From the NCBI RefSeq assembly GCF_963676685.1, contig NC_092346.1, positions 88,908,001-88,972,000 on the forward strand: a stretch of 64,000 nucleotides of DNA, in the 5' to 3' direction. A program made the position numbers and the translations under genes. Below, one piece after another: positions 8,313 to 64,000 of the stretch (its first letter is position 1; every line of letters starts with the position of its first letter). The stretch comes from Mytilus edulis. Lineage: Eukaryota. The notes beneath the pieces are model-generated. The model searched no databases. It saw only the letters and a program-made list of their open reading frames with translations, and was not told the origin of the DNA.

Positions 8313-10307
8313 AAACCAGATGCTCCGCAGGGCGTAGCTTTATACGACCGCAGAGGTTGAACCCTGAACGGTTAGGGCAAGTATGGACACAACATTCAAG
8401 CTGGATTCAGCTCTAAATTTGGATTGTGATTAAATAGTTGACACAGCATAGGTTTCTGACACAGAATGAATGTGTTCTAATGAACTTAAAAATTTTGTTT
8501 CTCTTAGAGCAATTCACTATGCTGTTGAATATTAATCCTCTCAAAAAAATGTTTGAAGAAATTTTCTTTTTTATTTATGAAATTTCAAATGAGAAAAATT
8601 GAACCCAATTTTTTTAATCACATCCCCCTTTCCCTTATTCCAAAACTAATCTCAATTAAAATTTCTAATGGAGTTTGCAACAATAACTCCTCATTTAAAT
8701 ACATCATAAAATATTAAGATGTAAAAAAACTGCTTGTTATCACTGAATGGTAAAGATTATTTTAATTTATCAGTTGGTAGTAAAAAGTGAATATACATTG
8801 TATATTGTATATAACAAAGATTTAAGTTGGTTCTGGACAAAGAAAGATAACTCCAATTAAAAAAAAATCTTGCTTTTGCACAATATTTTGCAATTAGATA
8901 TTTCTTGCTTACTATTCTGGACAAAGAAAGATAACTCTAATTAAAAAAAAATTTGATATTTCACAATATTGTGCAATTAGATATTTCTTGCCATTGCGCA
9001 ATACTGTGCAATTGAAAAGACTTGCTATTGCACAATACTTAATATAATAATTTTAGATCCTGATTTGGACCAACTTGAAAACTGGGCCCATAATAAAAAA
9101 TCTAAGTACATTTTTGGATTCAGCATATCAAAGAACTTCAAGATTTCAATTTTTGTTAAAATCAGACTAAGTTTAATTTTGGACCCTTTGGACTTTAGTG
9201 TAGACCAATTTGAAAACTGGACCAAAAATGAAGAATCTACATACACAGTTAGATTTGGTATATCAAAGAACCCCATTTATTCAATTTTTGATGAAATCAA
9301 ACAAAGTTTAATTTTGGACCCCGATTTGGACCAACTTGAAAACTGGGCCAATAATCAAGAATCTAAGTACATTTTTAGATTCAGCATATCAAAGAACCTA
9401 ACTGATTCATTTTTTGTCAAAATCAAACTAAGTTTAATTTTGGACCCTTTGGAACTTAATGTAGACCAATTTGAAAACGGGACCAAAAGTTAAGAATCTA
9501 CATACACAGTCATGACAGTTAGATTCAGCATATCAAAGAACCCCAATTATTCAATTTTGATGAAATCAAACAAAAGTTTAATTTTGGACCCTTTGGGCCC
9601 CTTATTATGTTGGGACCAAAACTCCCAAAATCAAACCCAACCTTTCTTTTATGGTCATAAACCTTGTGTTTAAATTTCATAGATTTCTATTTACTTATAC
9701 TAATGTTATGGTGCGAAAACCAAGAAAAATGCTTATTTGGGTCCCTTTTTGGCCCCTAATTCCTAAACTGTTGGGACCTACACTCCCAAAATCAATACCA
9801 ACCTTCCTTTTGTAGTCATTAACATTGTGTTTAAATTTCATTGATTTCTATTTACTTAAACTAATGTTATTGTGCGAAAACCAAGAATAATGCTTATTTG
9901 GGCCCTTTTTTGGCCCCTAATTCCTAAACTGTTGAGACCAAAACTCCCAAAATCAATCCCAACCGTTCTTTTGTGGTCATAAACCTTGTGTCAAAATTTC
10001 ATAGATTTCTATTAACTTAAACTAAAGTTATAGTGCGAAAACCAAGAAAATGCTTATTTGGGCCCTTTTTGGCCCCTAATTCCTAAAATGTTGGGACCAA
10101 AACTCCCAAAATCAATACCAACCTTCCTTTTGTGGTCATAAACCTTGTGTTAAAATTTCATAGATTTCCATTCACTTTTACTAAAGTTAGAGTGCGAAAA
10201 CTAAAAGTATTCGGACGCCGGACGACGACGACGACGACGCCGCCGACGCCAACTTGATAGCAATATACGACGAAATTTTTTTCAAAATTTGCGGTCGTAT
10301 AAAAAAA
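8313..10307 (-). mobile_element. Helentron-associated non-autonomous element (HINE/DINE-1-like), apparently complete
   Basis: Inverted subterminal repeats TATACGACCGCA (8341-8352) and TGCGGTCGTATA (10290-10301); inner copy TATACGACGA (10264); (GAC)n microsatellite ~10213-10250; GCTCCGC-AGG-GCGTAGC hairpin 8322-8338; internal tandem arrays; A/T-run ends and no TSD. Confidence 0.8.
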
Positions 10308-14991: not shown

Positions 14992-16975
14992 TGAATGGAG
15001 GAATAGCATGTGTATAAAAGCCACTCTTAGCACTACTGAATAGAGGAATAGCATGTGTATAAAAGACACTCTCAGCACTATCTGAATGGAGGAATAGCAT
15101 GTGTATAAAAGCCACTCTCAGCACTATCTGAATGGAGGAATAGCATGTGTATAAAAGCAACTCTCAGCACTTCTGAATGGAGGAATAGCATGTGTATAAA
15201 AGCCACTCTCAGCACTATCAGCTACTGAATAGAGGAATAGCATGTGTATAAAAGACACTCTCAGCACTATCAGCTACTGAATGGAGGAATAAGCATGTGT
15301 ATAAAAGCCACTTTCAGCACTACTGAATGGAGGAATAGCATGTGTATAAAAGCCACTTTCAGCACTACTGAATGGAGGAATAGCATATGTATAAAAGCCA
15401 CTCTCAGCACTATCAGCTACTGAATGGAGGAATATAAAAGCCACTCTCAGCACTATCTGAATGGAGGAATAGCATGTGTATAAAAGCCACTTTCAGCACT
15501 ACTGAATGGAGGAATAGCATGTGTATAAAAGCCACTTTCAGCACTACTGAATGGAGGAATAGCATATGTATAAAAGCCACTCTCAGCACTATCAGCTACT
15601 GAATGGAGGAATATAAAAGCCACTCTCAGCACTATCAGCTACTGAATGGAGGAATAGCATGTGTATAAAAGCCACTCTCAGCACTATCAGCTACTGAATG
15701 GAGGAATAGCATGTGTATAAAAGCCACTCTCAGCACTATCAGCTACTGAATGGAGGAATAGCATGTGTATAAAAGCCACTCTCAGCACTATCAGCTACTG
15801 AATAGAGGAATAGCATGTGTATAAAAGCCACTCTCAGCACTATCAGCTACTGAATGGAGGAATAGCATGTGTATAAAAGCCACTTTCAGCACTACTGAAT
15901 GGAGGAATAGCATATGTATAAAAGCCACTCTCAGCACTATCAGCTACTGAATGGAGGAATATAAAAGCCACTCTCAGCACTATCAGCTACTGAATGGAGG
16001 AATAGCATGTGTATAAAAGCCACTCTCAGCACTATCAGCTACTGAATGGAGGAATAGCATGTGTATAAAAGCCACTCTCAGCACTATCAGCTACTGAATG
16101 GAGGAATAGCATGTGTATAAAAGCCACTCTCAGCACTATCAGCTACTGAATAGAGGAATAGCATGTGTATAAAAGCCACTCTCAGCACTATCAGCTACTG
16201 AATGGAGGAATAGCATGTGTATAAAAGCCACTTTCAGCACTATCAGCTACTGAATGGAGGAATAGCATGTGTATAAAAGCCACTTTCAGCACTACTGAAT
16301 GGAGGAATAGCATATGTATAAAAGCCACTCTCAGCACTATCAGCTACTGAATGGAGGAATATAAAAGCCACTCTCAGCACTATCAGCTACTGAATGGAGG
16401 AATAGCATGTGTATAAAAGCCACTTTCAGCACTATCAGCTACTGAATGGAGGAATAGCATGTGTATAAAAGCCACTTTCAGCACTACTGAATGGAGGAAT
16501 AGCATATGTATAAAAGCCACTCTCAGCACTATCAGCTACTGAATGGAGGAATATAAAAGCCACTCTCAGCACTATCAGCTACTGAATGGAGGAATAGCAT
16601 GTGTATAAAAGCCACTCTCAGCACTATCAGCTACTGAATGGAGGAATAGCATGTGTATAAAAGCCACTCTCAGCACTATCAGCTACTGAATGGAGGAATA
16701 GCATGTGTATAAAAGCCACTTTCAGCACTATCAGCTACTGAATAGAGGAATAGCATGTGTATAAAAGCCACTCTCAGCACTATCAGCTACTGAATGGAGG
16801 AATAGCATGTGTATAAAAGCCACTTTCAGCACTACTGAATGGAGGAATAGCATATGTATAAAAGCCACTCTCAGCACTATCAGCTACTGAATGGAGGAAT
16901 ATAAAAGCCACTCTCAGCACTATCAGCTACTGAATGGAGGAATAGCATGTGTATAAAAGCCACTTTCAGCACTGC
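14992..16975. repeat. Minisatellite with 52/45/43-bp unit variants and higher-order structure
   Basis: About 40 tandem copies of TGAATGGAGGAATAGCATGTGTATAAAAGCCACTCTCAGCACTATCAGCTAC and its deletion variants. Confidence 0.97.
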
Positions 16976-24334: not shown

Positions 24335-24480
24335 TGACTGTAATATTTTTTCTGTCTATGAAGAAATAACATAAAAAATGTGGTGCACACTGAATAACGC
24401 ACTTAGCATATATTATTTAACAGTGTGCACCACATTTTTTACGCTATTTCCAATAGACTGACAAAATTATACAGTTATTT
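24335..24480. repeat. Long imperfect palindrome (foldback/MITE-like remnant)
   Basis: AAAAATGTGGTGCACACTG...CAGTGTGCACCACATTTTT core with imperfect arms of ~65 bp. Confidence 0.7.
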
Positions 24481-24654: not shown

Positions 24655-26030
24655 TGACCATGCTTCCCTTATGACATATATGCCTTAACATGATCATCCT
24701 TCCCTTACAACAATAGGGCTTAACAAGAGCATGCTTAACCCTTAGGATAAAAGGCCTTAACATGAGTATGCTTCCCTTAGGACAATAGACCATTTAACAT
24801 GAGGATGGATCCCCTGAGGACAATAGGCCTTAACATGAGCATGATTCCCTTAGGACAATAGACCTTAACATGAGCATGCTTCCCTTATTACAATAGGCCT
24901 TAACATGAGTATGCTTCTCTTATGACAATCTGCCTTATAAACATGAACATGCTATCCTTAGGACAAAAGGCCTTAAAATAAGCATACTCCCCTTAGGACA
25001 ATAGGCCTTAACATGAGTAGCTACATTTGTACCCTTAGGACTGACAATAGGCCTTAACATGAGCATGATACCCTTAGGACAATAGGCCTTAACATGAGCA
25101 TGATACCCTTAGGACAAAAAGCTTTAACATGAGCATGCTCCTCTTTGGACAATAGACCTGAACATGAGCATGCTTCCCATTTGACAATCTGTCTTAACAT
25201 GAGCATGCTACCCTTAGGACAAAAAGCTTTAACATGAGCATGCTCCTCTTTGGACAATAGACCTGAACATGAGCATGCTTCCCATTTGACAATCTGTCTT
25301 AACATGAGCATGCTACTCTTAGGACAATTTGCCTTAACATGAGCATGATGCCTTTAGCCAGTTTAGGACACTCGGTCTTAATATGAGCATGCTTCCCTTA
25401 GGACAATTTGCTATTACATGAGCATGCTTCCTTTAGCCAGTTTAGGAATCTGACTTAACATGATCATGCGTCCTTTAGGACAATCTGCCTTACCATGAGC
25501 ATGCTTCCCTTATGACAATTTGCTTTAACATGAGCATGCTTCCTTTAGACAGTTTAGGACAATCTGACTTAACATGAGCATGCATCCTTTAGGACAATCT
25601 GCCTTACCATGAGCATGCTTCCCTTATGACAAACGGGCTTAACATGAGCATTTATTCCTAAGGACAATCTGCCTTAACATGAGTATGCTTTCCTTATAAC
25701 AATATGCCTTAACATGAGCATGCTTCCCATTTGACAATCTGTCTTAACATAAGCATGCTCCCCTTACGACAATCTGACTTAACATAAGCATGCTTCAATT
25801 AGGACAATATGCCTTAACATGAGCATGCTTTCCTTAAGACAATCTGCCTTAACATGAGCATGCTACCCTTAGGACAATAGGCCTGAACATGAGCATGCTA
25901 CCATTAGGACAATAGGCCTTAACATGAGCATGCTACCATTAGGACAATAGGCCTTAACATGAGCATGCTACCCTTAGGACAATAGGCCTGAACATGAGCA
26001 TGCTTCCCTTGGGATATATAGGCCTTAAAA
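24655..26030. repeat. 35-bp minisatellite, degenerate at the edges
   Basis: Tandem CATGAGCATGCTTCCCTTAGGACAATAGGCCTTAA, roughly 38 copies. Confidence 0.95.
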
Positions 26031-40405: not shown

Positions 40406-42875
40406 CATCCAAGTATTAAAATAATAAAAGAAACTAAACCAGAAAAAGAAGAACTAAATTTTAGCCCAGTACATTCAGAGTTTGTTAAAAAAAAAAAAAA
40501 TCAATAAAATTAACATAAAAAAGGCAACAGGAAAAGATGGAATCTCTTCAAAAATACTAAAATTATCCGAATCTGAAATATCCAATCCAATTTCTAAACT
40601 AATAAATAAATCATTTGAATCAGCTGTTTTCCCAGATAAATTAAAAGAAGCACAAGTAATAACCCTGCATAAAAAATCAAACACCCTTGACAAAGGAAAC
40701 TATAGACCTGTAAGTATATTGCCCATGATTTCAAAAAAATTTGAGAGGTCTATAGAAAATCAACTTGTTGAATACTTTAATTCATTTTTCCCATTTTCTG
40801 TCAGCTTTTCGAAAAGGATATGGATGCCAAACCGCTTTATTAAAAATAATTGAAGATTGGAAAAAGGCTTTAGATCAGAATAAACATGTAGCAGCTATAT
40901 TAATGGACTTGTCCAAGGCCTTTGACTGCCTACCCCATGACCTCCTCCTACTAAAATTAACCATAACCATAACCTTAACTGGCTATCTGAAAACTTTGTT
41001 TTAGATACAAAACTATTAATTTGCGGACACTTGGAACTTTCGAACGAACAAAATATTCAAATTTTCAAACATGTTCAAAATTTCATAAAAAGGTCAAACA
41101 TATTTCTTATGCCTTGATAGAGCGTTATTATTACTGACACTGAACGTCATCATTGTCATCAATCCACAAGTCATCGTCACAGAATTATACGACTTTTCAA
41201 ACTTTCTTTTTCTCTTTTTACTTTCTATCCTCTTTGTTCACCTATCAAAGCTAGTATTATATTGCATAAATTGTTTGTTTTATATGCATGTCCATTATAT
41301 TATACTATTATTGTAACTTTATATTGTATTATGGAGAAGACTTCATAAGTATGATTTACTTGTGTCTAATCCATTTTGCTTTAATTCAGCAAATAAAATA
41401 TGTTTAAACTAAACTAAAATTAAAATCCTATGGGGTTTCCGCCTCATCTCTTAAACTTTTGGAAAACTATTTAACTAATAGAAAACAGTGTGTTAAAGTA
41501 GGTACTAATTCAAGCTATTGGCAAACAATGTTTAAAGGGGTGCCACAAGGGTCAATATTAGGGCCAACATTATTTAATATTTTTTTTAATGACATTTTCT
41601 ATTTCATTCATAAAAGTGAACACTATAATTATGCAGATGACAACACCCTTTCATACGCAGATAACGATTAAGATAAATTAATTAAAACTTTAGAAGATGA
41701 AAGTAAAATTTTGATAAACTGGTTCTCAATAAATAAAATGAAAGCAAATCCAGAAAAATTTCAAGCAATGGCTGTAGGTAAAAAAAACTAAAGACAAAAA
41801 CCTAAAATTTAAATTAGAAGGTAATGAAATAGAGTGTGAAGATAACGTTAAACTTCTAGGTGTAACAATAGATTTTAAACTAAATTTCAATGAACATGTC
41901 TCTATAATATGTAAAAAAGCACCCAAACAATTAAATGTATTAAAAAGAATAGGTAAACACCTGACTAAACTCGGAAAATTAATAATTTATTATTCTTTCA
42001 TAATGTCCAACTTTTTAACTACTGCCCACTAGTTTGGCACTTTTGTGGGGAGGTAAATACAAAAAAGATAGAGAAAATTCAAGAGAGAGCACTAAGGTTC
42101 ATCTATGAAGACCATTCAGCAAGTTATGAAGATCTACTCTGCAAATCAAAATTACCATCTTTAAAAATAAGAAGAATGCGATCTTTGGCGATTGAAGTTT
42201 TCAAAATAATAAATAAAGATTGTCCTGTATATCTCCATGATTTGATTCACTTAAAGGAAAACACTTACTCTTTCAGATACCAGAATACAGCAGATCTACC
42301 ACATGTAAGAACAACTGCATATGGCCTACAATCCTTCAGGTATGCGGGTGCTAGGCTTTGGAATGAGCTGCCAGATGAGCTTCGAAAGCAATCATCTTTA
42401 AATCAATTAAAGAACTTGATAAATTCTTGGTCTGGCAGCTCATGCCAATGCTTTGCCTGCAAAACCACTTAATCTATGTTCATTATTTTTTTGGTTTGTT
42501 GCTTTATTTTCAGCATGGCAAATTTATTTTATTATCTTTACTATAGTGCTTCTGCTGCTTTGTGCTAATTTTAGAAACTTTATGTGATTTTACTGTGCTT
42601 TCTATGTGCAAACCATTTTATTTGTGCTTTCGTTTTTATCTCACAATTGCATGTATCAGTTTAACTTATACGATGCTTAAAGAACTTTTGTGCTGCATGG
42701 TTATATACTGATATGAACTCTTGCTTTTTATGTTTAATGTTGTGTGCATGACTCGATATGTATGTTTTGTTTTACTTGTTGTTATGTCGGTTTTAAAAGC
42801 TCTTTAGAGCTTATGTTTGTAATTGCTTGCTTATACCGACTCTAAATAAAGCTGTATGTCTTATTATGTCTTTAT
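40406..42875 (+). mobile_element. Decayed 5'-truncated L2/Crack-like LINE
   Basis: HPSI, KATGKDGIS, NYRPVSIL, MDLSKAFD, GVPQGSILGP, YADD and GARLWNELP in broken frames; AATAAA followed by an (ATGTCTT)-like tail. Confidence 0.88.
40961..41412 (+). mobile_element. Short 3' end of a fourth LINE nested in the L2-like element
   Basis: TSD ACTAAAATTAA (40950-40960, 41413-41423); removing it restores LLKLKSYG; encodes LLICGHLELSNEQNIQIFKHVQNFIKRS; AATAAA and (TAAAC)n tail. Confidence 0.8.
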
Positions 42876-46644: not shown

Positions 46645-46885
46645 GACAACAGTACTGTACCGCTTTTCGAAAGTCATAAATCGATTGAGAGAAAACAAAT
46701 CCAGGTTACAAACTAAAACCGAGGGAAACACATCAACTATAAGTGGAAAACAACGAAACAACAGAAACACTAAAGTGCATAAAAGACCTAAGAAATTGTA
46801 ACACTCATAGAAACGAACTATAAGATAACAACTGCCATTTTCCTTACCTGATACAGGACATTTTAAGAAAACAAATGGTGGGTTG
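46645..46885 (+). repeat. Dispersed repeat fragment inserted in the penton-like pseudogene
   Basis: CAACAGTA..TACCGCT..TCGAA..TCATAAATCGATTGAG family; reverse copies at ~51800-52002 and ~56885-57380. Confidence 0.6.
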
Positions 46886-47078
46886 ACATGACATCAATTA
46901 TTTGTTCATTTTTATAAATTGACTGGTTGCAAAAGTTAAAATTAATCGAAATACTAAGCATTTTCTTATCACAGGCATAGATTACATAAGCCGTATTTGG
47001 CACAACTTTTTGGAATTTTGGGTCCTCAATGCTCTTCAACTTTGTTCTTGTTTTGGCTTTCAAACTTTTTTAATCTGA

Positions 47079-47122
47079 GCGTCACTGATGAGTCTTATGT
47101 AGACGAAACGCTCGTCTGGCGT
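47079..47122 (+). ncRNA. Minimal type I hammerhead ribozyme
   Basis: GCGUCA-CUGAUGA-GUCU(UAUGU)AGAC-GAAA-C(GCUC)G-UC/UGGCGU; intact catalytic core; predicted cleavage after 47116. Confidence 0.82.
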
Positions 47123-47436
47123 ATAAAATTACAAGCCTGGTACCTTTGATAACTATTTACACCACTGGGTCGATGCCACTGCTGGTGGAGTTTCGTCCCC
47201 GAGGGTATCACCAGCCTAGTAGTCAGCACTTCAGTGTTGACTTGAATATCAATTATTTGGCCATTTTTATAAATTTACTGGTTGCAAAAGTTAAAATTAA
47301 TCGAAATACTATGGATTTTCTTATCCCAGGCATATATTACATAAGCCATATTTGGCACAACTTTTTGGAATTTTTGGGGCCTCAGTGCTCTTTAACTTTG
47401 TACTTGTTTTGGCTCTCAAACGGGTTTTTTATCTGA

Positions 47437-47480
47437 GCGTCACCGATGAGTCTTATGTAGACGAAAAACGCGTCTGGCGT
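47437..47480 (+). ncRNA. Mutated hammerhead ribozyme copy
   Basis: Same layout, but CCGAUGA in the core and an altered stem III; probably impaired. Confidence 0.65.
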
Positions 47481-47528
47481 ATAAAATGATAAGCCTGGTA
47501 CCTTTCATAACTAATTGAACCTGGCTTT

Positions 47529-47675
47529 GTTTTCTGCATGCATATTTGCAAAAGATTAGCAAGACTCCAGGTGTACCAAAGCCATTGCATGACTCTTTAG
47601 ATCTTATAAGTTAATAGATAGATTAAACCGGGTATCAACTTGGCTGTTATTTGCAGACACAATGAATGAGAACGA
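47529..47675 (-). pseudogene. Penton/minor-capsid-like pseudogene, 5' part
   Basis: SFSFIVSANNSQVDTRFNLSINL*DLKSHAMALVHLESC*SFANM, directly downstream of the major capsid remnant. Confidence 0.65.
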
Positions 47676-47718
47676 TCTGTATTTATAACATTTTTTTTCG
47701 TAATAATTGTCTAATAAT

Positions 47719-48905
47719 TTATTCACTTTTAAAGACAACATTCATTTATTGTTCGTAAAGACTCGACCTGCAGAACTCTATCTGATATAACCTGTGCCTA
47801 AGTTAAGTGTCAGCTGGATCATTGTGCTCGAACCCCATCCCCACTTGAATGCCAACTACTGACTCTTTTAGCTTTTCAGATTGGCGATGACGAACAAGGG
47901 GTTAATGTTTGAAACGTGTTAGGGTTGAATTTATTATTGCTAATGAGAAGATTCATGTTGAAGAACTTAATAAACAGGTTGGCGGCTTCCTTGTACATTC
48001 TAGAAAATATTGTGCAGTTGGCAGTGACCAAACATGACTGCGTTATGAGTTTGCTCGCTCGTTACTCTTCTCTTTTTGGAAGGCACACGTCTACTCTTGG
48101 CAGATAACAACGGTACCAGGTTTATGATTTAATAAACTTAAATTCTCTACTTTGGGGACCTATCTCATGCGGAAACCACAGATTATTTTAGTCTTGCTTT
48201 GGATTGATTTGTATAGTTTCATATTGTTTTCATTGGAAGGGACCACATGAGGACCGAACCAGAATAGTATAACTTAATACAAGTTTTGCTTGATCGTTAA
48301 CTTGCCAGTTAAGTCCATAAACGATCTTGCCATAATCCACCGCGAAACCAAATACGTTTTTTTAAACAATTTTGCGTAAAAGCGTTCTTTTGGTTGTAGA
48401 GACTTTGCGATGATGTAGCCATGTCTAGCTGCAAATGCAGTGTTTAAGCTTCGGCGTCAGTCGTCGAATCTTTAAACGTCAATTGGTTGAGACCTCGCAA
48501 TTTGCCAAAGTTTTCGGGATAAGTAAACAACCCCAAGATAGTATTAGTACCAGGTATACCTAGATCATTAAGATATTCAGGTATTCAATCTGCTGACCGA
48601 TCAGTTTATAACTGATGCTTTTAAAGAGATACAACTGATGCTTTTGAAGAGATACATGATACCACTGCTTGCAAGGGATACTTGATCTGTATCCGTGTTG
48701 CCGTTTTTCAGGCGTCGTCCTTTCATCAAAAGACAAATTTCATCCTAATGGACAAACGTAACTTGGGTTTCGATGTTTTTCTTATTTAAGCATCAGAACT
48801 TTTCAAGAATGCTTCAGTTTGGGGATCGTACTCATGGACTTGGTATTCTTGAATATAATTAACAAAAGATTAACCTTTTGTGAGTTTAAGTATTTTAGCC
48901 GCCAG
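47719..48905 (-). pseudogene. Double-jelly-roll major capsid protein pseudogene (Polinton/adintovirus-like)
   Basis: Collinear blocks across frameshifts: IQEYQVHEYDPQT, GIMYLFKSIS, GQQIEYLN, TILGLFTYPENFGKLRGLNQLTFKD, AFAARHGYII, KNVFGFAVDYGKIVYGL, WFGPHVVPS, LYKSIQSK, GFRMR, FSRMYKEA, EKLKESVVGIQV, VISDRVL. Confidence 0.78.
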
Positions 48906-49719
48906 GTATTTATTCATTACGATTGAAGCAGCCGTGAATGGTTATAATACCCTCGCCAGAGATTACATTGTTCAAACGAGGAGTATTTTTACTTTTAGGG
49001 GGGATGTTGTTAAAACGGGATTGGTGCTGAGGAGTCTTTGTTTGTGGTATCCTACTTCTCACTCTATGAACTACATGATCTACAGCTTTGGAAGCACTGG
49101 GTCACCCTATCTGTACAATTTTGATCTACCTCCTAATGCACGACTGATAGTATTGCCCATTTAAATAGTAATTTCACATTAATAACAATGATCCATATCG
49201 GTAGGTCTTCATACTGCCAGCCGGATAATGGCATGTAGTTGTTGATGTTTAGGTACAAATTTATAATTTTCTTTAATATTAAATCACTCTTTTTTATGTC
49301 TACTCAGCAATCTTTTCTCAGCAATCTTTTCCCCAGTCTTTTGATCCATCCCTTCCTAAGGGTCAATTAGGTCAGTGGCTTCTGTAATAATTTGATTTCC
49401 CGGATTCTTGTCTCCATCTTTTTTATCGCCATTTTTATCTATGTAGTTAATTTTTACAAAAAGCAGTGTGACACCACATTATTTTTAGCCCCTTTCAATC
49501 GATTATCGCCTTCCTTTTTTCTCGTGATGTCTGAATATCCATTTCAGCATCCGATGTTATTTTTCATGTAGTCAATTAACCTTTTCAGGCTTTCTTTTGT
49601 TTATGTACCTTAATCATAAACTCTTTATCTTTTTTATTCATTTCACTTACTTTATTCAACAGTTGATTTTAAGGTAACCTGCTAACCCCTTTTAATACAT
49701 GTTGTTTTGCCTCTGTTGT

Positions 49720-50091
49720 TACTTTTGATAACTATTTAAACCACTGGGTCGATGCCACTGCTGGTGGACGTTTCGTCCCCGAGGGTATCACCAGCCCAGT
49801 AGTCAACATTTTGGTGTTGATATGAATATCAATAATGTGGTCATTTTTATAAATTTCCTGTTTACAAAACTTTGAATTTTTCGAAAAACTAAGGATTTTC
49901 TTATTCCAGGCATAGATTACCTTAGCCGTATTTGGCACAACGTTTTGGGATTTTGGATCCTCAATGCTCTTCAACTTTGTACATGTTTGGCTTTACCAAT
50001 ATTTTGATTTGAGCGTCACTGATGAGTCTTATGTAGACGAAACGCGCGTCTGGCGTACTAAATTATAATCCTGGTACTTTTGATAACTATT
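49720..50091 (+). mobile_element. Unit-length (355 bp) retrozyme-like monomer
   Basis: Bounded by the direct repeat TACTTTTGATAACTATT (49720-49736, 50075-50091); contains an intact hammerhead. Confidence 0.82.
50013..50056 (+). ncRNA. Minimal type I hammerhead ribozyme, best-preserved copy
   Basis: GCGUCA-CUGAUGA-GUCU(UAUGU)AGAC-GAAA-C(GCGC)G-UC/UGGCGU; palindromic ACGCGCGU in stem III; predicted cleavage after 50050. Confidence 0.88.
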
Positions 50092-51419
50092 GTTATTGTT
50101 CTCTCGTCCCTATCAAATCGTTTTCATTCTATAGTACTTTTAAAGACCGGCATTTTGTTACAGGTTTTTTAATCGTTTAACTGTTGCAACAAATGTATTT
50201 ATTATTTTTTTCCTTAAAAAAAAACACATTTTGTTTAGGAGCCAGTTGAATCCTGCCACCGCGTTCGGGATCTTCTCACTGTGTTGGTGGCCTTGGGCTG
50301 TTTTCTGTTCTTTTGTCGGGTTGTTGTGTCTCTGACGCATTCCCCCATTCAAATTCTCAATTTTTATATAATGTCTACTTGTTTGGTTAGCAGTCGACTG
50401 TTTAAACAACTTATTTTTATTTTTTTTTATTTTCGTATTTCCCCTTTTAATCAGTACTCATGATGTGATGACTATGTTAAATAATAGCAATAAAAATGTT
50501 TACCCTCCTCTGTCCGAGTATTTCATTCCATAGACGACAATCTTTAATTTCTGATGTGGAATCAAATTCTCAAACTCCAATATATTTACTCATCACACAC
50601 CTCATACTTTTCTTGGTACACTTTTGCATTCTCGATCCTACCTGTTAGTAACTCTTTCAGCCTTAATGCCTTTTCTATCTTCTTTCCATATTAAATGTCT
50701 ATTCTTCCATAAAACTTGAGGGATCAGATATAATAGACATATTTATTAAAAATGTATGTTCTTTTGTTTTTTATGGTTAGGGTTAGCGTTAGGGGTTTTG
50801 TAAAATAGACATTTTCCCCTTCTCAGCGAATATATTATTTTTTTAAATTATTTTACCTACGTTTATACATGTCTATTAAATCAACGTTTTCTTAAAATGC
50901 ATTTGACATTAGCTCTCACTTCTCTATATACTACTATTTAATTCAAAGAAAAAATAGTGAAATTCCAAATATCTTCGGGCATAACTCCTCTTTGCAGACC
51001 TTTACAGATCTAGAGTATTAAATTGAGACCTGTTTAGTGTCTAACATTGTATTCTCACGAAGGGAATAACCGTAAAGTGTTATTAAAAATTTACATATAT
51101 TAACCAACCATTAAAAATCTTTAAAAATGAGGAAATCAGAAACATTGTACGTTGAAGATAGTTTTAGACGATACAACCTACTTATTGATCTATACACACA
51201 GTTAGTTAGTCTGTTTCATCTTTAGACTTTCCTGTAATGCCAAGTAAGGTTTACAATAAAAAGTATTTTCTTGTACACAAAAAGGCAAATCAATTGGACA
51301 AAAATACTGGGATAAGAAAGTTAACTCTTGTACATTTACTTTAAATCCAGCATCGATTTCGCGGGTGGTAAAGACAATTTAACTTTTCTGCATATTTTTT
51401 GTCGATGTGACCATTAGAA

Positions 51420-51790
51420 AGTAAGAACAAAAATACAGAACTCCGTGGAAAATTCAAAACAGAAAATCCATAACTAGCAAAATCAAAAGCTCAAACACAT
51501 AAACAAAAATGGATAACAACTGTCATATTTCTGATTGGATACAAGCATTTTTTCAAATGGAAATGGTGGATTAAACCTGGTTTTTATAGCTGGCTAAACC
51601 TCTCACTTGTATAACTTTTGCATTAAATTCAATCATATTGACAATGATGTGTGAACAAAACAAATCGACATAATAAGTAAAAATGTCAAAAACAGGGGTA
51701 CATTTGTCAATATTCTGTTATAATAATCTTAATTACTATAAAAACAAAAAATATGTAACAAAGAGACACATAGAGGCATATAGACAAAGC
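51420..51790 (+). repeat. Dispersed repeat (copies at ~52690-52980 and, reversed, ~55800-56050)
   Basis: AAAAATAC..AACTCCG.GGAAAATTCAAAAC ... GGATAACAACTGTCATA ... GATGTGTGAACAAAACAAA shared by three copies. Confidence 0.65.
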
Positions 51791-52001
51791 AAATGATGCC
51801 CTGTACCAAGTCAGGATAATTACCATTGTTATATTATAGTTCTTTTCTCTGTGTGTTACATTTTGGCGTTGTGTTTCTGTTGTGTCGTAGTTCTCCTCAT
51901 ATATTTAATGTGTTTCCTTCAGTTTTAGTTTGTAACCCGGATTTGTTTTTCTCAATCGACTTATAAAAATTCGAACAGCGCTATACTACTGTTGCCTTTA
52001 T

Positions 52002-52390
52002 TTGTAGACGAAACACACATCTGGCGTATAAAATTTCAATCTTGGTATCTATGATGAATTTAATTACATCCACTGGGTCGGTGACACTGCTGATGAAGGT
52101 TTCCTCCCCGAGTGCACCATCAAGATGAAATGAATGATATTTGATATAGTCACATTTATAAATTAACTGTTTACAAAACTTTGAATTTTTCGAAAAACGA
52201 TTTTCTACCCAAAGAATTAATTGAGCGGTACTTGGCAAAACCATGCGGAATTTTGGGTAATTAATTATCTTCAACTTCGTTCTTTATTTGGTAATTTCAA
52301 CTTTTTTGATTCGAGTGTCACTGATGAGTCCTTAGCGTCGAAATACGTGTTTGGCGTACAAAAATTGAACGTTGGTATCTATGATTGGTT
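52002..52390 (+). mobile_element. Degenerate retrozyme-like unit with a decayed hammerhead (52315-52357)
   Basis: Starts with a partial GTAGACGAAAC...TCTGGCGT, includes CCACTGGGTCG, and ends GTCACTGATGAGTC...CGAAAT...TGGCGT. Confidence 0.62.
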
Positions 52391-52455: not shown

Positions 52456-52630
52456 TTATCGTCGTCTTCGACGTCGGCGGCTGCGATAATGTCCTCCTCC
52501 AACATGAACCCTGGTATTACTTCTTTGTTGTCGAATGAATTTACCGACTTCTTTCTTACAGTTCGGGCAAGTGTGTACGACATCTTTGGCACCTTTCCAC
52601 AGAAATGGTAAGAAGCAACAAAGTATAAAA
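52456..52630 (-). CDS. LITAF-domain protein, last exon
   Basis: ttttttccag acceptor, phase 2; (G)FILCCFLPFLWKGAKDVVHTCPNCKKEVGKFIRQQRSNTRVHVGGGHYRSRRRRRRR*. Not in the ORF track. Confidence 0.92.
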
Positions 52631-53394
52631 CTGGAAAAAAAGATTGTTTTCGTTTAGAATGGCTTTATTATGACTATACATAACAAAAAGGTAAAATCAC
52701 AAAAATACTCCGAGTGAAATTCAAAACTGAAAAGTCCCTAATTAAATGCCAAAATCAAAAGTTCAAACACACCAAACGAATGGATAACAACTGTCATACT
52801 CCTGACTTGTTACAGGCATTTTCTCATATAGAAAATGGTGGATTATATCTGGTTTTAAAGCTAGCTAAACCTCTAACTTGTATCATATGACAGTCGCATA
52901 AAATTCCATTATATTGATAACGATGTGTGAACAAAACAAATAGACACAAAAGGTAAAAATGTCACAAATAGGGGTACAACAGCAACACGAACCCTATCAA
53001 AAACTGTAGGTGGTTTCAGATGCTCCGGAAGAGTAAGCAGATCCAGCTCAACATGTCATACTCGTCGTTATATTGTATTTTAACATCATGACGAGTGTCG
53101 TTGATTTTACTGTCGTAAATTGAATAAATGATAAATCTGCAACACTGTAGCCAAGCCAGTAAACACTTGTTGCGACTGTAAATCTAAAATCACATCGTAT
53201 TCCTATGCAACGTTATATGTGAATGTTCAAAACATATGGTCAGATATGAATTATACATATTTTTTATAACGAACTATTACTACGATATAGATTTTATCTT
53301 TTACTTTCGGTGAACAATTCTTAAATATTTATTGTACATCAAATAGATTATAAAAGGAATTCTTTAAAATAATATGTGATGCATAAAAGCTTAC

Positions 53395-53887
53395 CCCATA
53401 GAACCAATCATTATACACCACAACCACGTGCACGAGCCTACAACATATTCTATTTCTGTAGTAATATCTGTCTGACAGTGTGGACATTTAGTACTGACGG
53501 GATGTTCATTTTGTGCTGGACTGTTGGGATCTATGGGCATAGGCATCATCATTGGTACACCACCTTGAACAATGACTGGCTGTCCATATTGATTCTGAAC
53601 AATCATCTGTTGACCAAATGCTACCATACCAGGTTGAGTCATAATTGGTTGTCCGGGTTGATAAATAGCAGGCTGTCCAGCTTGATTTGCCATTGGTTGA
53701 CCAACTTGATTCGCCATTGGTTGTCCAGCTTGATAAACAATTGGTTGACCTACTGGATTCACCATTGGCTGTCCAGTTTGATAAATAATTGGTTGTCCAG
53801 CCTGATTAGTCATTGGCTGTCCGGGTTGATTTGATTGGTTATATTGATTTGGCTGGCCTTGATCTGTCTGTTGTTGTCCATCTTGAC
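53395..53887 (-). CDS. LITAF-domain protein, middle exon (Q/G/P repeats, first CxxC, hydrophobic segment)
   Basis: Open 493-nt exon between aag| and GG|gtaagc; PVSTKCPHC...VGSCTWLWC; the three exons total 693 nt = 230 aa. Confidence 0.9.
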
Positions 53888-53959
53888 CTTAATTAATATG
53901 ATAGCTAACATATTTAAAGTAAAGAACTAACACATAAAAACATATTTGTATGCATATTA

Positions 53960-55190
53960 TTTCACACACTCAAACACTCTGCCACATGCTGTCTTGGATT
54001 CATCCTTACAATGCTATAAGTACAAGCACTCACTTGGAACAAGGAATAAATGAACACTCATTTCATCCCATATACAAAGAAATATCATTTGACAAGGATG
54101 AGATTTTGGCGAATCATAAGTCCTTCGTGTATTCAATGAATATTACATTGAACAACAAATCGGAGGACTTTCCTTGTTTGTATTGTATATACCTAAGCTT
54201 CACAACATTCCGTAAAAAACAACAATACATTACCGGCTCATTTGCATGTTTCACTGAAGTATTGTCCATTAGATTGACTAAAATTCTGTTTGCAGTGAAA
54301 GAGGGTCTTTAGAAGTAATGTGAAACTGTTTACTTGCGAAGTGGGTGTGGATTCTTAAAAATTCTATAGAACTTTTGGATAATTTTAAATCTCGGAACTT
54401 CTGACATTAGTTAATTCAAAACTTTTGATTTTTCCACCCTGTATACCACCATTCCTCATGTGAAATTAAAAAATCGCATTAAAGAAAAAATCCACAATGC
54501 CTTTCGACATAAAAATGGTAGCATACTAGCATTACTTTGGGATACCATATGGCATATTTTGTTAATAGTGAACAAAAGGGTAAAAAAAATGCTACACAGA
54601 GGAACAAGTGAGCAGTATGCTGGAGTTTTTTTTTTTATCGGCAACCTATTTGTTGAATTTGGATGTAGACTTAAAGAAATAACAGACACAGCTTTTTCTG
54701 CCATACTTTTAGACTTATTCCTCGAATTTGACATACACAGACATCTCAGGACCAGAATTTATGACAAACGAGACGATTTTAATTTTGAAATTATTCATTT
54801 CCCCCACCTTAGCAGCAATATACCAACTTTACCTGCATATACGGGATAAACATTTCCCAACTTATTCGGTACTCAAGAGCTTGCAGTAAAACGTCACCAG
54901 TGTTTGAGCAGAAAGTTGATGAACCAGGGGTATGTTAAAAAGAACGTCGAGTACCAAGACCTTGTTGATAAATATTCCGTATCAACTTCACAAATAATAC
55001 ACGATGGTCTTGAAGTATAGATTCTGCGTACTAACTTCGTTTATAATCTTAGTAAAAAAGTTTAGTGTTCTTTTATTTGTCAGTAATACTGTTTGGTCTG
55101 TTTTTGATGATATTCATTTAACGTGGCTCTGTACTTTGGCATCCTGTCATTGTGTTGTTTGTATTAGCTTGTGTTTCTTTGATACATAAT
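53960..55190 (+). mobile_element. Decayed, internally deleted Penelope-like retroelement RT in LITAF intron 1
   Basis: PKLH, VKEGL, WILKNS, TFDFSTLYTTIPH (54421-54459) and IYDKRDDFNFEII.FPHLSSNIP in broken frames; the catalytic YxDD segment is missing. Confidence 0.8.
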
Positions 55191-57488
55191 GGCGTGGCCC
55201 TTTTTTTAAGAAGAAATATACAATAAGCATATAGACAAGCGACAAGAAGGACAAGGTAAAATTTTATTTACATTCTGCAGAGGATATACCTAAAAGAACT
55301 ATAGACTATATTGTATATCTCTACCTATGTACATTCTGACGTCAAACACGCGATTCTAAAATCTTTCAATCCTTTATGGGTGGATTTAACACCCATGAAT
55401 AAAATACAAAAAATAAAAAAGCAATGTATGAGGTTTTTTAAATTAAAATATGCCTTTTTAGTGCTTCTTTGTTACGTGTTTTTTTCAATTTTTATTTACA
55501 TTTTGTTTGTTTTTTTATTGATATTAAGATTATAACACAATGTTGACTGCTGTACCCCTAATAATGATAAAATTGAGAAGGAAATGGGGAATGTGTCAAA
55601 GCGACAACAACCCTACCATAGAGCAGACAACAACCGAAGGCCACCAATGGGTCTTCAATGTAACGAGAAACTCCCGCACCCGTAGGTGTCCTTAAGCTGG
55701 CCCCTTAAAATTATGTATACTAGTACAGTGATAATGGACGTCATACTAAACTCCGAATTATACACAAGAAACTAAATTAAAAATCATAGATTACCCATTA
55801 TGTCTGTTTGTTTTGTTCACGCATCGTTGTCAATATAATGTAATTTGATGCGACTGTCGTACAAGTGAGAGGTTTAGCGCTATAAAACCAGGTTCAATCC
55901 ACATAAGAAAACGCCTGTACTAAGTCAGGAATATGACAGTTGTTATCCATTCGTTTGATTTGTTGGAGCTTTTGATTTTGCTTTTTGATTAGGGACTTTC
56001 CGTTTTGAATTTTCCTCGGAGTTCAGTATTTTTGTGATTTTACTTTTCACTTGCAAATTTATGAAGCAAATTCATGAAGCTGTTCCGGATCATACGAGTA
56101 TTTGGACCGTACGCGTACCCTCCGGACCGTATGCGTATACTCTTACAGTCCAACCATACGAGTACTGTGGGACCATATGTGTATACTCATACAGTCTAGT
56201 ACAGAATGTTCCTTTTTTGTTTTTATCTGAATTGTTTAGGGTTTGTTAATGCCAAACATGGACATAATTTTTTATTTATTTCGGGACTGCTCTTTTTAAA
56301 ATTTATTGAAAGTTTATCACAATCTTAACCATACAGGCATAATGCTATTGTCCAAATCCTTTTTTTTTTTTATCAGAATCATTTTTTGGTTTCCAAAAAT
56401 CATGGACTTGAAAGGAATCAAAAGGGATCACTTTTTGAGCTTTGACGGAATTACTTCTGATTTTTTTTTACCACGTACACATTTCCGAAAAGTTATTAAG
56501 CCTACGCGCAGATAAATAATAATAATAATAATAAATAAAATTCTTTATTTAACGAATAAGTTCTTTATTTTCGTTTGCAGAGAAATCAATGTTTTTTGTT
56601 GAGAAGAGCTAACAGTGTACTTCTTTCTTATATTACTAGTGGTCAGCATTATAATATAAAAAATGGTGATGTAGACCGACTGCCAATGAAACATTTATTC
56701 AACATAATTCAATTAAGCAGATTTAAGCTACTATATGTCACCGTACGGACTTCAACTATGTCAGAGTCAAACCAAAGCAGAACAGGCAGCTATGAAAGTC
56801 TTTAAGACCCCGACATAAAAAGTGTAAACCAATTCGCATGATTCATGAAATGATAATAAAATGATATAAAAAATGATACACGTCTTCCTATTTATTTGTA
56901 TTGTAGTCCTGTAATATTATGTTGTCATTTCAATGTTAATGTTAACATTGCCATTAAAGTGTGAGGTTTGGCATGCCACAAAACCAGGTTCAACCCACCA
57001 TTTTTTTCCTTTAAAAATGTCCTGTACCAAGTCAGGAATATGGCCATTGTTATATTATAGTTCGTTTCTGTGTGTGTTACATTTTAACGTTGCGTCGTTT
57101 GTTTTCTCTTATTTTTGAGTGTAAATTCACATTGCGATAAGACGTGTCACGGTACTTGTCTATCCCATATTCATGTATTTGGTTTTGATGTTATATTTGT
57201 TATTCTCGTGGGATTTTGTCTGATGCTTGGTCCGTTTCTGTGTGTGTTACATTGTAGTGTTGTGTCGTTGTTCACCTCTTATGTTTGGTGCGTTTCCCTC
57301 AGTTCTAGTTTGTTACCCCGATTTTGTTTTTTGTCCATGGATTTATGAGTTTGAACAGCGGTATACTACTGTTGCCTTTATACTAATTATATAATATAAA
57401 AAATGTCCAGTATTTGACTGTCTACAAAAAATGCGCAATAAATTGCAATTACTACCTCTTGCAATGTACTCTTTATCATAAAACTTAC

Positions 57489-62484: not shown

Positions 62485-64000
62485 ATTCGCTTCAGTTTGT
62501 GCTGAATGCTTTACAACTAAAAACCCTTCAAAAATGCTTAACAACAAAACCACGCTTTAGTTTTTACTCAATGCTTTACAACAAAACACTCTTCAATTTG
62601 TACTCTATGCTTTACAACAAAAGCACGCATTTTTTTTTACTGAATGCTTTACAACAAAACCACGCCTCAGTTTGTACTAAATGCTTTACAACAAAACCTC
62701 GCTTCAGTTTTTACTCAATACTTTACAACAAAACCTCGCTTCAGTTTTTACTAAATGCTTTACAACAAAACCACGCTTCAGTTTTTACTGAATGCTTTAC
62801 AACAAAACCACACTTCAGTTTTTACTAAATGCTTTACAACAAAACCACGCCTCAGTTTGTACTAAATGCTTTACAACAAAACCTCGCTTCAGTTTTTACT
62901 CAATGCTTTACAACAAAACCTCGCTTCAGTTTTTACTAAATGCTTTACAACAAAACCACGCTTCAGTTTTTACTCAATGCTTTACAACAAAACCACATTT
63001 CAGTTTTTACTAAATGCTTTACAACAAAACCTCGCTTCAGTTTTTACTCAATGCTTTACAACAAAACCTCGCTTCAGTTTTTACTAAATGCTTTACAACA
63101 AAACCACACTTCAGTTTTTACTGAATGCTTTACAACAAAACCACACTTCAGTTTTTACTAAATGCTTTACAACAAAACCACGCTTCAGTTTTTACTCAAT
63201 GCTTTACAACGAAACCACGACTCAGTTTTTACTCAAAGCTTTGCAAAAAAAACAAGCTTCAATTTGTATTCAATTCTTTACAACAAAACCAGACTTCAGT
63301 TTTTACTGAATACTTTAAAACAAAACAACGATTCAGTTTTTACCCGAAGCTTTACAACAAAACGACGCTTCAGTTTTTACTCAATGCTTTTACAACAAAA
63401 CTACGCTTCAGTTTAAACTCAATGCTTTGCAACAAAACCAAGCTTCAATTTTTACTCAATGCTTTACAACAAAACACTCTTCAATTTGTACTCTATGCTT
63501 TTCAACAAAACCACGCTTCAGTTTTTATTCAATGCTTAAAACCAAGCTTCAGTTTGTATTCAATGCCTGTACAACACAACCACGCTTCAATTTGTACTCA
63601 ATGCTTTACAACAAAACCACGCTTCAGTTTTTACTCAATGCTTTACAACAAAAACAAGCTTCAATTTGTACTCAATGCTTTACAACAAATTACGCTTCGG
63701 TTTGTACTCAACCACTTTCAACAAAACCACGCTTCAGTGTGTACTTAATACTTTAAACCAAAACCAAGCTTCAGTTTCTACTCAATGCCTCTCGCCAAAA
63801 CCACACGTCAATTTCTACCCAATGCTTTATAACAAATCCACGCATCAGTTTTTACTCAATGCCTCACATCAAAACCATGTTTCAGTTTGTTCTTGATGCT
63901 TTACGCACAATTATCGTATCAGTACATGTACTCAATGCTTTACATAAAAAAAACCACGCATCAGCTTGTACCCAATGATTTACAACAAAAACACGCATCA
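62485..64000. repeat. 37-bp satellite/minisatellite running off the window end
   Basis: Tandem AATGCTTTACAACAAAACCACGCTTCAGTTTTTACT(C/A/G); homogeneous at ~62640-63200, degenerate on both sides. Confidence 0.97.

Follow-up and report, generated by a model that had tools for sequence, protein, structure and literature searches.

A 64,000-nucleotide (nt) stretch of Mytilus edulis DNA (GCF_963676685.1, contig NC_092346.1, positions 88,908,001 to 88,972,000; hereafter the window) contains several hammerhead ribozyme cores, and it raises the question of what the elements carrying them are and which enzyme copies them. Our answer is that they belong to a family of non-coding retrozymes of about 355 bp which also carry the 5'-end hairpin of Naiads, a clade of Penelope-like elements (PLEs), and that a Naiad enzyme likely copies them by recognizing this hairpin. 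The kind of element is already known; new here is a link to a helper that is specific and can be tested. The helper of animal retrozymes has been an open question since 2020, and the candidate named here combines an intact open reading frame (ORF) with a defined signal in the RNA and a prediction of the nucleotide at which copying starts. In the hairpin the Naiad clade gains a first candidate cis-element, and the results support the idea that hammerhead RNAs parasitise PLEs rather than serve them.

Identity and abundance of the hammerhead elements

An initial annotation, made from the sequence of the window, had listed four same-strand type I cores, beginning at 47079, 47437, 50013, and 52315. 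A descriptor requiring the core, stem II, the first helix III pair, an NUH site, and a perfect 6-bp stem I returned exactly these four, all on the + strand, and returned none in any of 200 shuffles. The other particulars given there were borne out as well: a GUC site at the first three cores and a degenerate fourth (Table 1), the 358-bp spacing of the first two cores, and a 355-bp unit bounded by a 17-nt direct repeat (49720-49736 and 50075-50091). The Infernal search that it proposed, run with Rfam model RF00163, found two of the four cores, 50013-50056 (33.0 bits, E = 0.00024) and 47079-47122 (29.9 bits, E = 0.0024), both slightly below the Rfam gathering score of 34. One core of the four, that at 50013, matches the family consensus, and its palindromic helix III region would permit a dimeric hammerhead. 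Plain energy folding of the four 60-nt cores did not recover the hammerhead fold and was not used as evidence.

The term "minimal" that the annotation had applied to these hammerheads was incorrect. The minimal hammerheads of PLEs are described as lacking helix III (PMC7761336). The family core has a helix III of 2 bp, with covariation in the second pair, closed by a GCGC loop, and is thus not of the minimal PLE type.

Unit size, GC content, tandem arrays, and hammerhead type all fit the mussel retrozyme without long terminal repeats (non-LTR retrozyme), and we regard the retrozyme identity of the window elements, which the annotation had also proposed, as nearly certain. The M. galloprovincialis retrozyme is described as having 350-390-bp tandem units, a GC content of 38%, no ORF, high expression, and a type I hammerhead that lacks the usual loop-loop nucleotides, cleaves at about 0.1 per min, and gives abundant circles (Cervera and de la Peña 2020, PMC7229834). 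The window family is like it in unit type, composition, expression, and hammerhead: the period is 355 bp, arrays reach 11 full units, the GC content is 0.38, and the unit contains merely short chance frames, counted with no start codon required. These values fall within the 150-450-bp repeat length and the GC content below 45-50% that characterize metazoan non-LTR retrozymes. Matched by description, the two are very likely the same (clone Mg353, MN642551-MN642576).

The cores lie in three insertions, A, B, and C, which had been proposed to be separate and of differing age. Identity to the nearest sampled genomic relatives supports this: 89% for A (240/269 and 315/352), 98% for B (349/356), which is the youngest copy, and 81% for C (259/319), whose hairpin has lost its 3' arm. 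TTGA flanks insertion A at 46883-46886 and 47515-47518 and is possibly a short target duplication, overlapping a 5' microhomology; TTGTTA (49716-49721 and 50090-50095), which overlaps both ends of insertion B, is possibly another. The suggestion of a special cluster did not hold. The suggested genome-wide count, restricted to the exact core pattern and thus a minimum, gave at least 15,450 cores in the 1.37-Gb genome (14 large contigs; reversed control, 0), so that about 0.7 are expected per 64 kb; of the four window cores, one fits this pattern. The window insertions are unremarkable members of a mussel repeat that is very common.

Thirty loci sampled in genome order contained at least four families with distinct hammerheads, F1 to F4. 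F3 (about 350 bp) and F4, at L082, L089, L094, and L247, have the same hairpin as F1 and hammerheads unlike it: stem II of F3 is inverted relative to F1, and F4 has a UUC site. Two-sided changes were found in 5 of 11 hammerhead pairs across F1-F4. The helix III region is palindromic in F1, F3, and F4, which may permit dimeric hammerheads in these families. A metagenome pattern scan gave 120 loci, from which those below 46% GC were examined, namely one (L180); its positions 785-1200 hold a divergent unit of about 340 bp with hammerhead and hairpin. This unit looks as if it sits inside an animal gene intron, the sequence beside it resembling what is presumably a glutamate receptor exon. At two loci, L100 and L290, retrozyme copies directly adjoin an inverted copy, an arrangement also described in PLE insertions.

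A hairpin and an end register in common with Naiads

Two features absent from the initial annotation, a fixed 3' end and a Naiad-type hairpin, point to the mobilizing enzyme. The 65 nt immediately beyond the fixed 3' end form, on folding, a hairpin that is long and irregular (z = -3.2 for insertion B and -1.1 for the mutated copy in insertion A). When the insertion B unit was compared with the 3370-bp unit of the element that we call Naiad2, the hairpin was the sole significant match (55/63, E = 3e-18; next match, E = 0.058), and the remaining 290 nt of the retrozyme unit had no detectable Naiad similarity. The best local alignment of the unit with Naiad1 was likewise the hairpin core, with a score reached by 0/200 shuffles in seven of eight comparisons and by 4/200 in the eighth. 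When 43 loci containing Naiad1 were searched with the unit by blastn, the hairpin escaped detection and only retrozyme insertions and stubs were returned; the link came first from the published Naiad consensus starts and from Naiad2.

Naiad2 has tandem units with an ORF of 995 amino acids (aa; L355:1302-4286), comprising an N-terminal GIY-YIG domain and a reverse transcriptase (RT), and this ORF is 55% identical to that of Naiad1, whose start is almost exactly that published for Naiad_Mgal. It is found at three tandem loci with units 97-99.7% identical, and exact Naiad2 5' hairpin cores number 138 genome-wide; no hammerhead pattern was found in its units. Judged from its sequence, Naiad2 is a young, intact Naiad. 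At two loci, C10:3660635-3660832 and C12:78783759-78783956, its hairpin core recurs every 83 bp.

Of 12 matches to the core 10-mer of the hairpin in the supplement of Craig et al. (2021, PMC8557442), 11 fall at the 5' starts of Naiad consensuses; bivalves account for seven of the sources, hemichordate families for three, and a fish for one. In Naiads the hairpin lies just before the start codon. In the published hairpins the outer stems differ in sequence and keep their complementarity, as read by eye. The words "hairpin" and "stem-loop" do not occur in the main text of that paper, Rfam has no family for the hairpin, and neither the hairpin nor a Naiad-retrozyme link was found in print in a search that stopped short of Repbase, Dfam, and subscription journals.

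The hairpin pattern has 9431 exact matches in the genome (control, 0), and all of 30 + 30 inspected loci were retrozymes or Naiad 5' ends. Five PLE families with a C-terminal endonuclease (8 loci with ORFs of at least 500 aa, of 12 fetched) were without the pattern. The hairpin is the best-conserved part of the four retrozyme families, ahead of the letters of the hammerhead: relative to F1 it is 85-93% identical in F3 (55/59), F4 (50/59), and L180 (50/59), compared with 55-57% (116-121/211) for the middle of the unit and 24-31/44 for the hammerhead. In an alignment of twelve hairpins, 96% of the cells were paired, three pairs had two-sided changes, G-U included, and the apical sequence was conserved letter for letter; Naiad1 was left out of this count, its extra inserted hairpin having been misaligned by MAFFT. 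A reading of the 5' arm as a Pol III B-box was dropped because the sequence is not kept in oyster Naiads.

The ends of the elements were examined in 81 F1 arrays in which both termini could be seen and identity was 88% or more. The sample was drawn by whole-unit, hairpin, or hammerhead searches and is non-random, yet none of these forces the 3' end that was found: 66 of the 81 arrays stop at unit positions 348-355. Their 5' starts are scattered across the whole unit, every one of the seven 50-nt bins being represented. Such a pattern is that of target-primed reverse transcription which begins at a fixed site, here about 40 nt beyond the point of cleavage, rather than at the cleaved end; in insertion B, positions 50082-50091 are the presumed start point.

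Naiads end in the same register. RNA reads exit the retrozyme at 50091 and Naiad2 at L355:1220-1221; the hairpin core follows 22 nt later in the former and, at 1242, 21-22 nt later in the latter. The genomic 3' ends of Naiad1, Naiad2, F1, F2, and F3 all lie in a T-rich run just before the hairpin, and Naiad2 and F1 agree in the distance from end to core despite differing upstream sequences. The retrozyme thus has a sequence in common with an intact Naiad of the same genome and is like it in 3' end register and 5' truncation. On these comparisons, dependence of the retrozyme on Naiads through the hairpin appears highly probable. A 29-nt retrozyme 3' stub occurs at the same place in the 3' untranslated region (UTR) of two Naiad1 copies (L061 3590-3618 and L072 6538-6566), indicating that the stub travels with a Naiad subfamily.

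RNA reads showed that the family is expressed. Insertion B attracted 5339 reads (of 8.7 million) in read set X21, 6069 in X22, and 2704 in X24, with zero flank coverage. Over the hairpin the first mate was mostly of the minus strand (1296 vs 220 in X21; 1383 vs 253 in X22), which in the usual stranded libraries indicates RNA of the hammerhead strand, about 6:1 sense in X21. The head-to-tail joint 50074->49720 was crossed by 476 reads in X21 and 491 in X22. Reads of Naiad2 were mostly 3' fragments on both strands and therefore do not demonstrate full-length Naiad expression.

Template, priming, and alternative readings

The following course of events is proposed. The family is transcribed on the hammerhead strand across unit junctions, as the reads show at the level of the family rather than of the window locus. 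Tandem hammerheads would excise monomers and a host ligase would close them into circles, as shown in M. galloprovincialis (PMC7229834) and presumed for the window family. A Naiad endonuclease-RT would then bind the hairpin, nick AT-rich DNA, and prime internally 21-22 nt upstream of the core; this step is put forward because the hairpin and the end register are common to both elements, and by analogy with the Poseidon PLE PAc (Frangieh et al. 2024, PMC11167929). Copying would circle the template and halt at variable points, leaving the 5'-truncated fragments, short-redundancy monomers, and near-identical arrays whose anatomy was observed. For such a life the retrozyme would need merely a hairpin and a hammerhead.

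SINEs and LINEs (short and long interspersed elements) form a partnership in which the non-coding parasite has only its helper's RT-recognition sequence in common with the helper; the SINE carries the LINE 3' tail and is primed at the RNA 3' end. The retrozyme signal differs in coming from the helper's 5' end, downstream of the complementary DNA (cDNA) start, and its template must therefore extend past the hairpin, as a circle or a multimer would. Only a template running past one unit could be primed in this way, which would explain the partial tandems of Naiads, and a circle suits a parasite.

In the published account of PAc, the protein starts cDNA inside its own RNA at a structure-fixed site and cuts AT-rich DNA (PMC11167929). 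By inference, the mussel system is like it in internal RNA initiation, in AT-rich targets, and in having a protein-binding RNA region near the ORF start; PAc differs in belonging to another PLE clade, in being autonomous with its own hammerhead, and in initiating 111-118 nt inside its ORF. The Naiads of Craig et al. (PMC8557442) resemble the retrozyme in several respects: a hairpin at the 5' end, a T-rich 3' end that is fixed, extensive 5' truncation, copies arranged in tandem and now and then inverted, and weak target duplications. They encode an endonuclease-RT of about 1000 aa and have no canonical hammerhead, whereas the retrozyme has a hammerhead and no ORF. PLEs were named just as candidate helpers in PMC7229834 and PMC7761336, the latter, a 2020 review, stating that retrozyme repeats show no conserved motif identifying a helper; to this are now added four or more families, the fixed 3' end, and the Naiad hairpin. 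Xenopus retrozymes (Li, Clavereau, and Pollet 2026, 10.64898/2026.07.22.740005) are alike in being non-autonomous partners of PLEs with similarity at the element termini. That preprint, in its available text, covers frogs with no molluscs sampled and reports Naiad in a coral alone. The mussel case further differs in that the helper lacks a hammerhead and the common part is a 63-nt structured RNA at the Naiad 5' end, beside the common 3' end.

A circular template had been proposed in the initial annotation from the terminal redundancy of the unit. The redundancy alone is insufficient, because the hammerhead-less Naiad2 also forms tandems, and the proposal gains its support indirectly, from private variants that units of one array have in common. 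Units differ by a mean of 5.5 positions within an array and 15.8 between arrays (12 arrays, 54 units), and the 11 units of L409 differ by a mean of 1.5 among themselves and by at least 10 from any outside unit. We consider a circular template probable, if less so than the dependence on Naiads. In its widest form our reading is that the hairpin of about 60 nt in bivalve, hemichordate, and fish Naiads is the binding and start-positioning signal of a telomerase-related RT; that mussel retrozymes are RNA circles with this hairpin and their own hammerhead, two orders of magnitude above the helper's hairpin RNA, inserted by internally primed rolling reverse transcription; and that the hairpin is a portable tag making any circular RNA a template for tandem insertion. 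We favor this extended version on balance; binding, priming, and the circular template are what we infer in it.

Several observations weigh against these readings. Reads at least 99% alike to the insertion B locus made up 117 of the 5339 in X21, so that expression is shown for the family and not for the window locus. The reads are compatible with circles and multimers alike, and they span the predicted cut without a dip, with no end pile-up listed, which equally fits circles or uncut RNA. The monomer circle, with 63% of its bases paired, folds no more stably than 60 shuffles (-77.7 vs -73.2 +/- 5.4 kcal/mol). The hairpin alignment is small and of related sequences, and its count of two-sided changes was reached in 103 of 500 shuffles; the exact 10-mer was found in 11 of the 54 listed Naiad consensuses, a count in which line breaks may hide more. 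Fifteen of the 81 F1 arrays stop elsewhere than at the fixed end, and target duplications were short or absent, those of at least 5 nt (16/65) being little above control (58/400). The array at L414 alternates units of 358 and 355 nt, which one monomer circle cannot make directly. For PAc, hammerhead mutants are reported to insert in vitro unaffected (PMC11167929).

The last two points would suit a scheme in which a Naiad mobilizes the family through the hairpin and the template is a linear multimeric or read-through RNA, or the arrays grow at the DNA level, hammerhead and circles mattering for RNA abundance rather than for copying. Local duplication or gene conversion can also homogenize arrays, and the tandems of Naiad2 form without a hammerhead. 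In mussel, however, circles are the dominant RNA form (PMC7229834), compensatory changes have preserved the hammerhead in families whose mid-unit sequences agree at only about 55%, and arrays of 2-11 units at unrelated loci have private variants; we judge the scheme unlikely and keep to the circular template. The hairpin might instead be a promoter, stability, or translation element from the Naiad 5' UTR, with the adjacent T-rich run setting the 3' end. Its place just before the Naiad start codon would agree with this, as would the overlap of PLE promoters with the hairpin region (PMC8557442) and the letter-for-letter apical conservation expected of a DNA element. The stems, on the other hand, covary as RNA pairs, G-U included and, by eye, across phyla; Naiad2 and F1 have equal end-to-core distances and unlike upstream sequences; and a non-coding unit needs no translation signal. 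A role of this kind is very improbable.

Still less weight is given to mobilization by a hammerhead-bearing Penelope/Neptune-type element or a LINE, with the Naiad hairpin a relic of origin. PLEs with a C-terminal endonuclease and minimal hammerhead-like motifs near their ends are present in the genome (L398/L404, L401, and L403/L406), PLE sampling was partial (150 of 858 candidates scored), and Xenopus retrozymes match PLE pseudo-long terminal repeats (pLTRs; 10.64898/2026.07.22.740005). Yet none of the five such families examined has the hairpin pattern, retrozyme matches in their loci do not recur with the element unit, and a relic should not be better conserved than every other part of four families. 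In a non-exhaustive search of those five and the two Naiad families, no autonomous PLE with a retrozyme unit flanking an RT-endonuclease ORF was found. Copying by a Naiad enzyme that recognizes the hairpin is thus the reading that we retain.

Other features of the window

Table 1. Positions of retrozyme, Naiad, and neighboring features in the window (position 1 is its first letter)
Feature	Position	Strand	Remarks
Hammerhead core 1, type I	47079-47122	+	Predicted GUC cleavage after 47116; loop III altered vs palindromic consensus
Hammerhead core 2	47437-47480	+	U4->C, second helix III pair lost; predicted weak or inactive
Hammerhead core 3	50013-50056	+	Family consensus; predicted GUC cleavage after 50050
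Hammerhead core 4, degenerate	52315-52357	+	Stem II broken, GUU site
Half hammerhead core (fifth)	52003-52030	+	5'-truncated start of insertion C; absent from initial annotation
Insertion A	46887-47514	+	About 1.8 retrozyme units, 5'-truncated, family F1; ~89% to nearest sampled relatives
Naiad-type hairpin of insertion A	47164-47220	+	84% over 63 nt to Naiad2 5' end
Insertion B	49720-50091	+	One full 355-bp unit plus 17-nt terminal redundancy
Naiad-type hairpin of insertion B	49743-49800	+	7-bp stem, 6-bp stem, irregular apical stem; 55/63 to Naiad2 5' end
Fixed family 3' end GATAACTATT	50082-50091	+	22 nt upstream of next unit's hairpin core
Insertion C	52003-52390	+	About 1.1 decayed units, F2-type tail, starts with half hammerhead; 3' boundary approximate
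Naiad1 copy, decayed, 5'-truncated	54043-56047	+	RT fragments and 3' end; tblastn E = 3e-56; blastn 77-85%
Naiad1 3'-end fragments	51418-51780 and 52685-52987	-	
LITAF-like gene, two exons	53391-53888 and ~52456-52620	-	PF10601, E = 6e-09
Dispersed repeat adjoining insertions A and C	46647-46886 (-), 51796-52001 (+), ~56886-57381		
Broken LINE-like RT	40458-42472	+	RVT_1, E = 0.0013
Tandem arrays	9068-10201, 14992-16973, 24655-26028, 62533-64000		Periods 135 and 161, 52, 35, 37 bp
30-bp inverted repeat	24361-24452		mir-242_2, 31.8 bits vs cut-off 56

The remaining features are listed in Table 1. The inverted repeat is probably not a microRNA, its mir-242_2 score being far below the cut-off. 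Pfam did not recognize the decayed RT fragment of the Naiad1 copy in the window. The hairpin does not regularly follow the dispersed repeat that adjoins insertions A and C (8 pattern matches, 2 of them retrozyme-like). The end of insertion C is about 65 nt beyond the stop codon of the LITAF-like gene, which is on the opposite strand, and the insertion probably lies in the 3' UTR of that gene.

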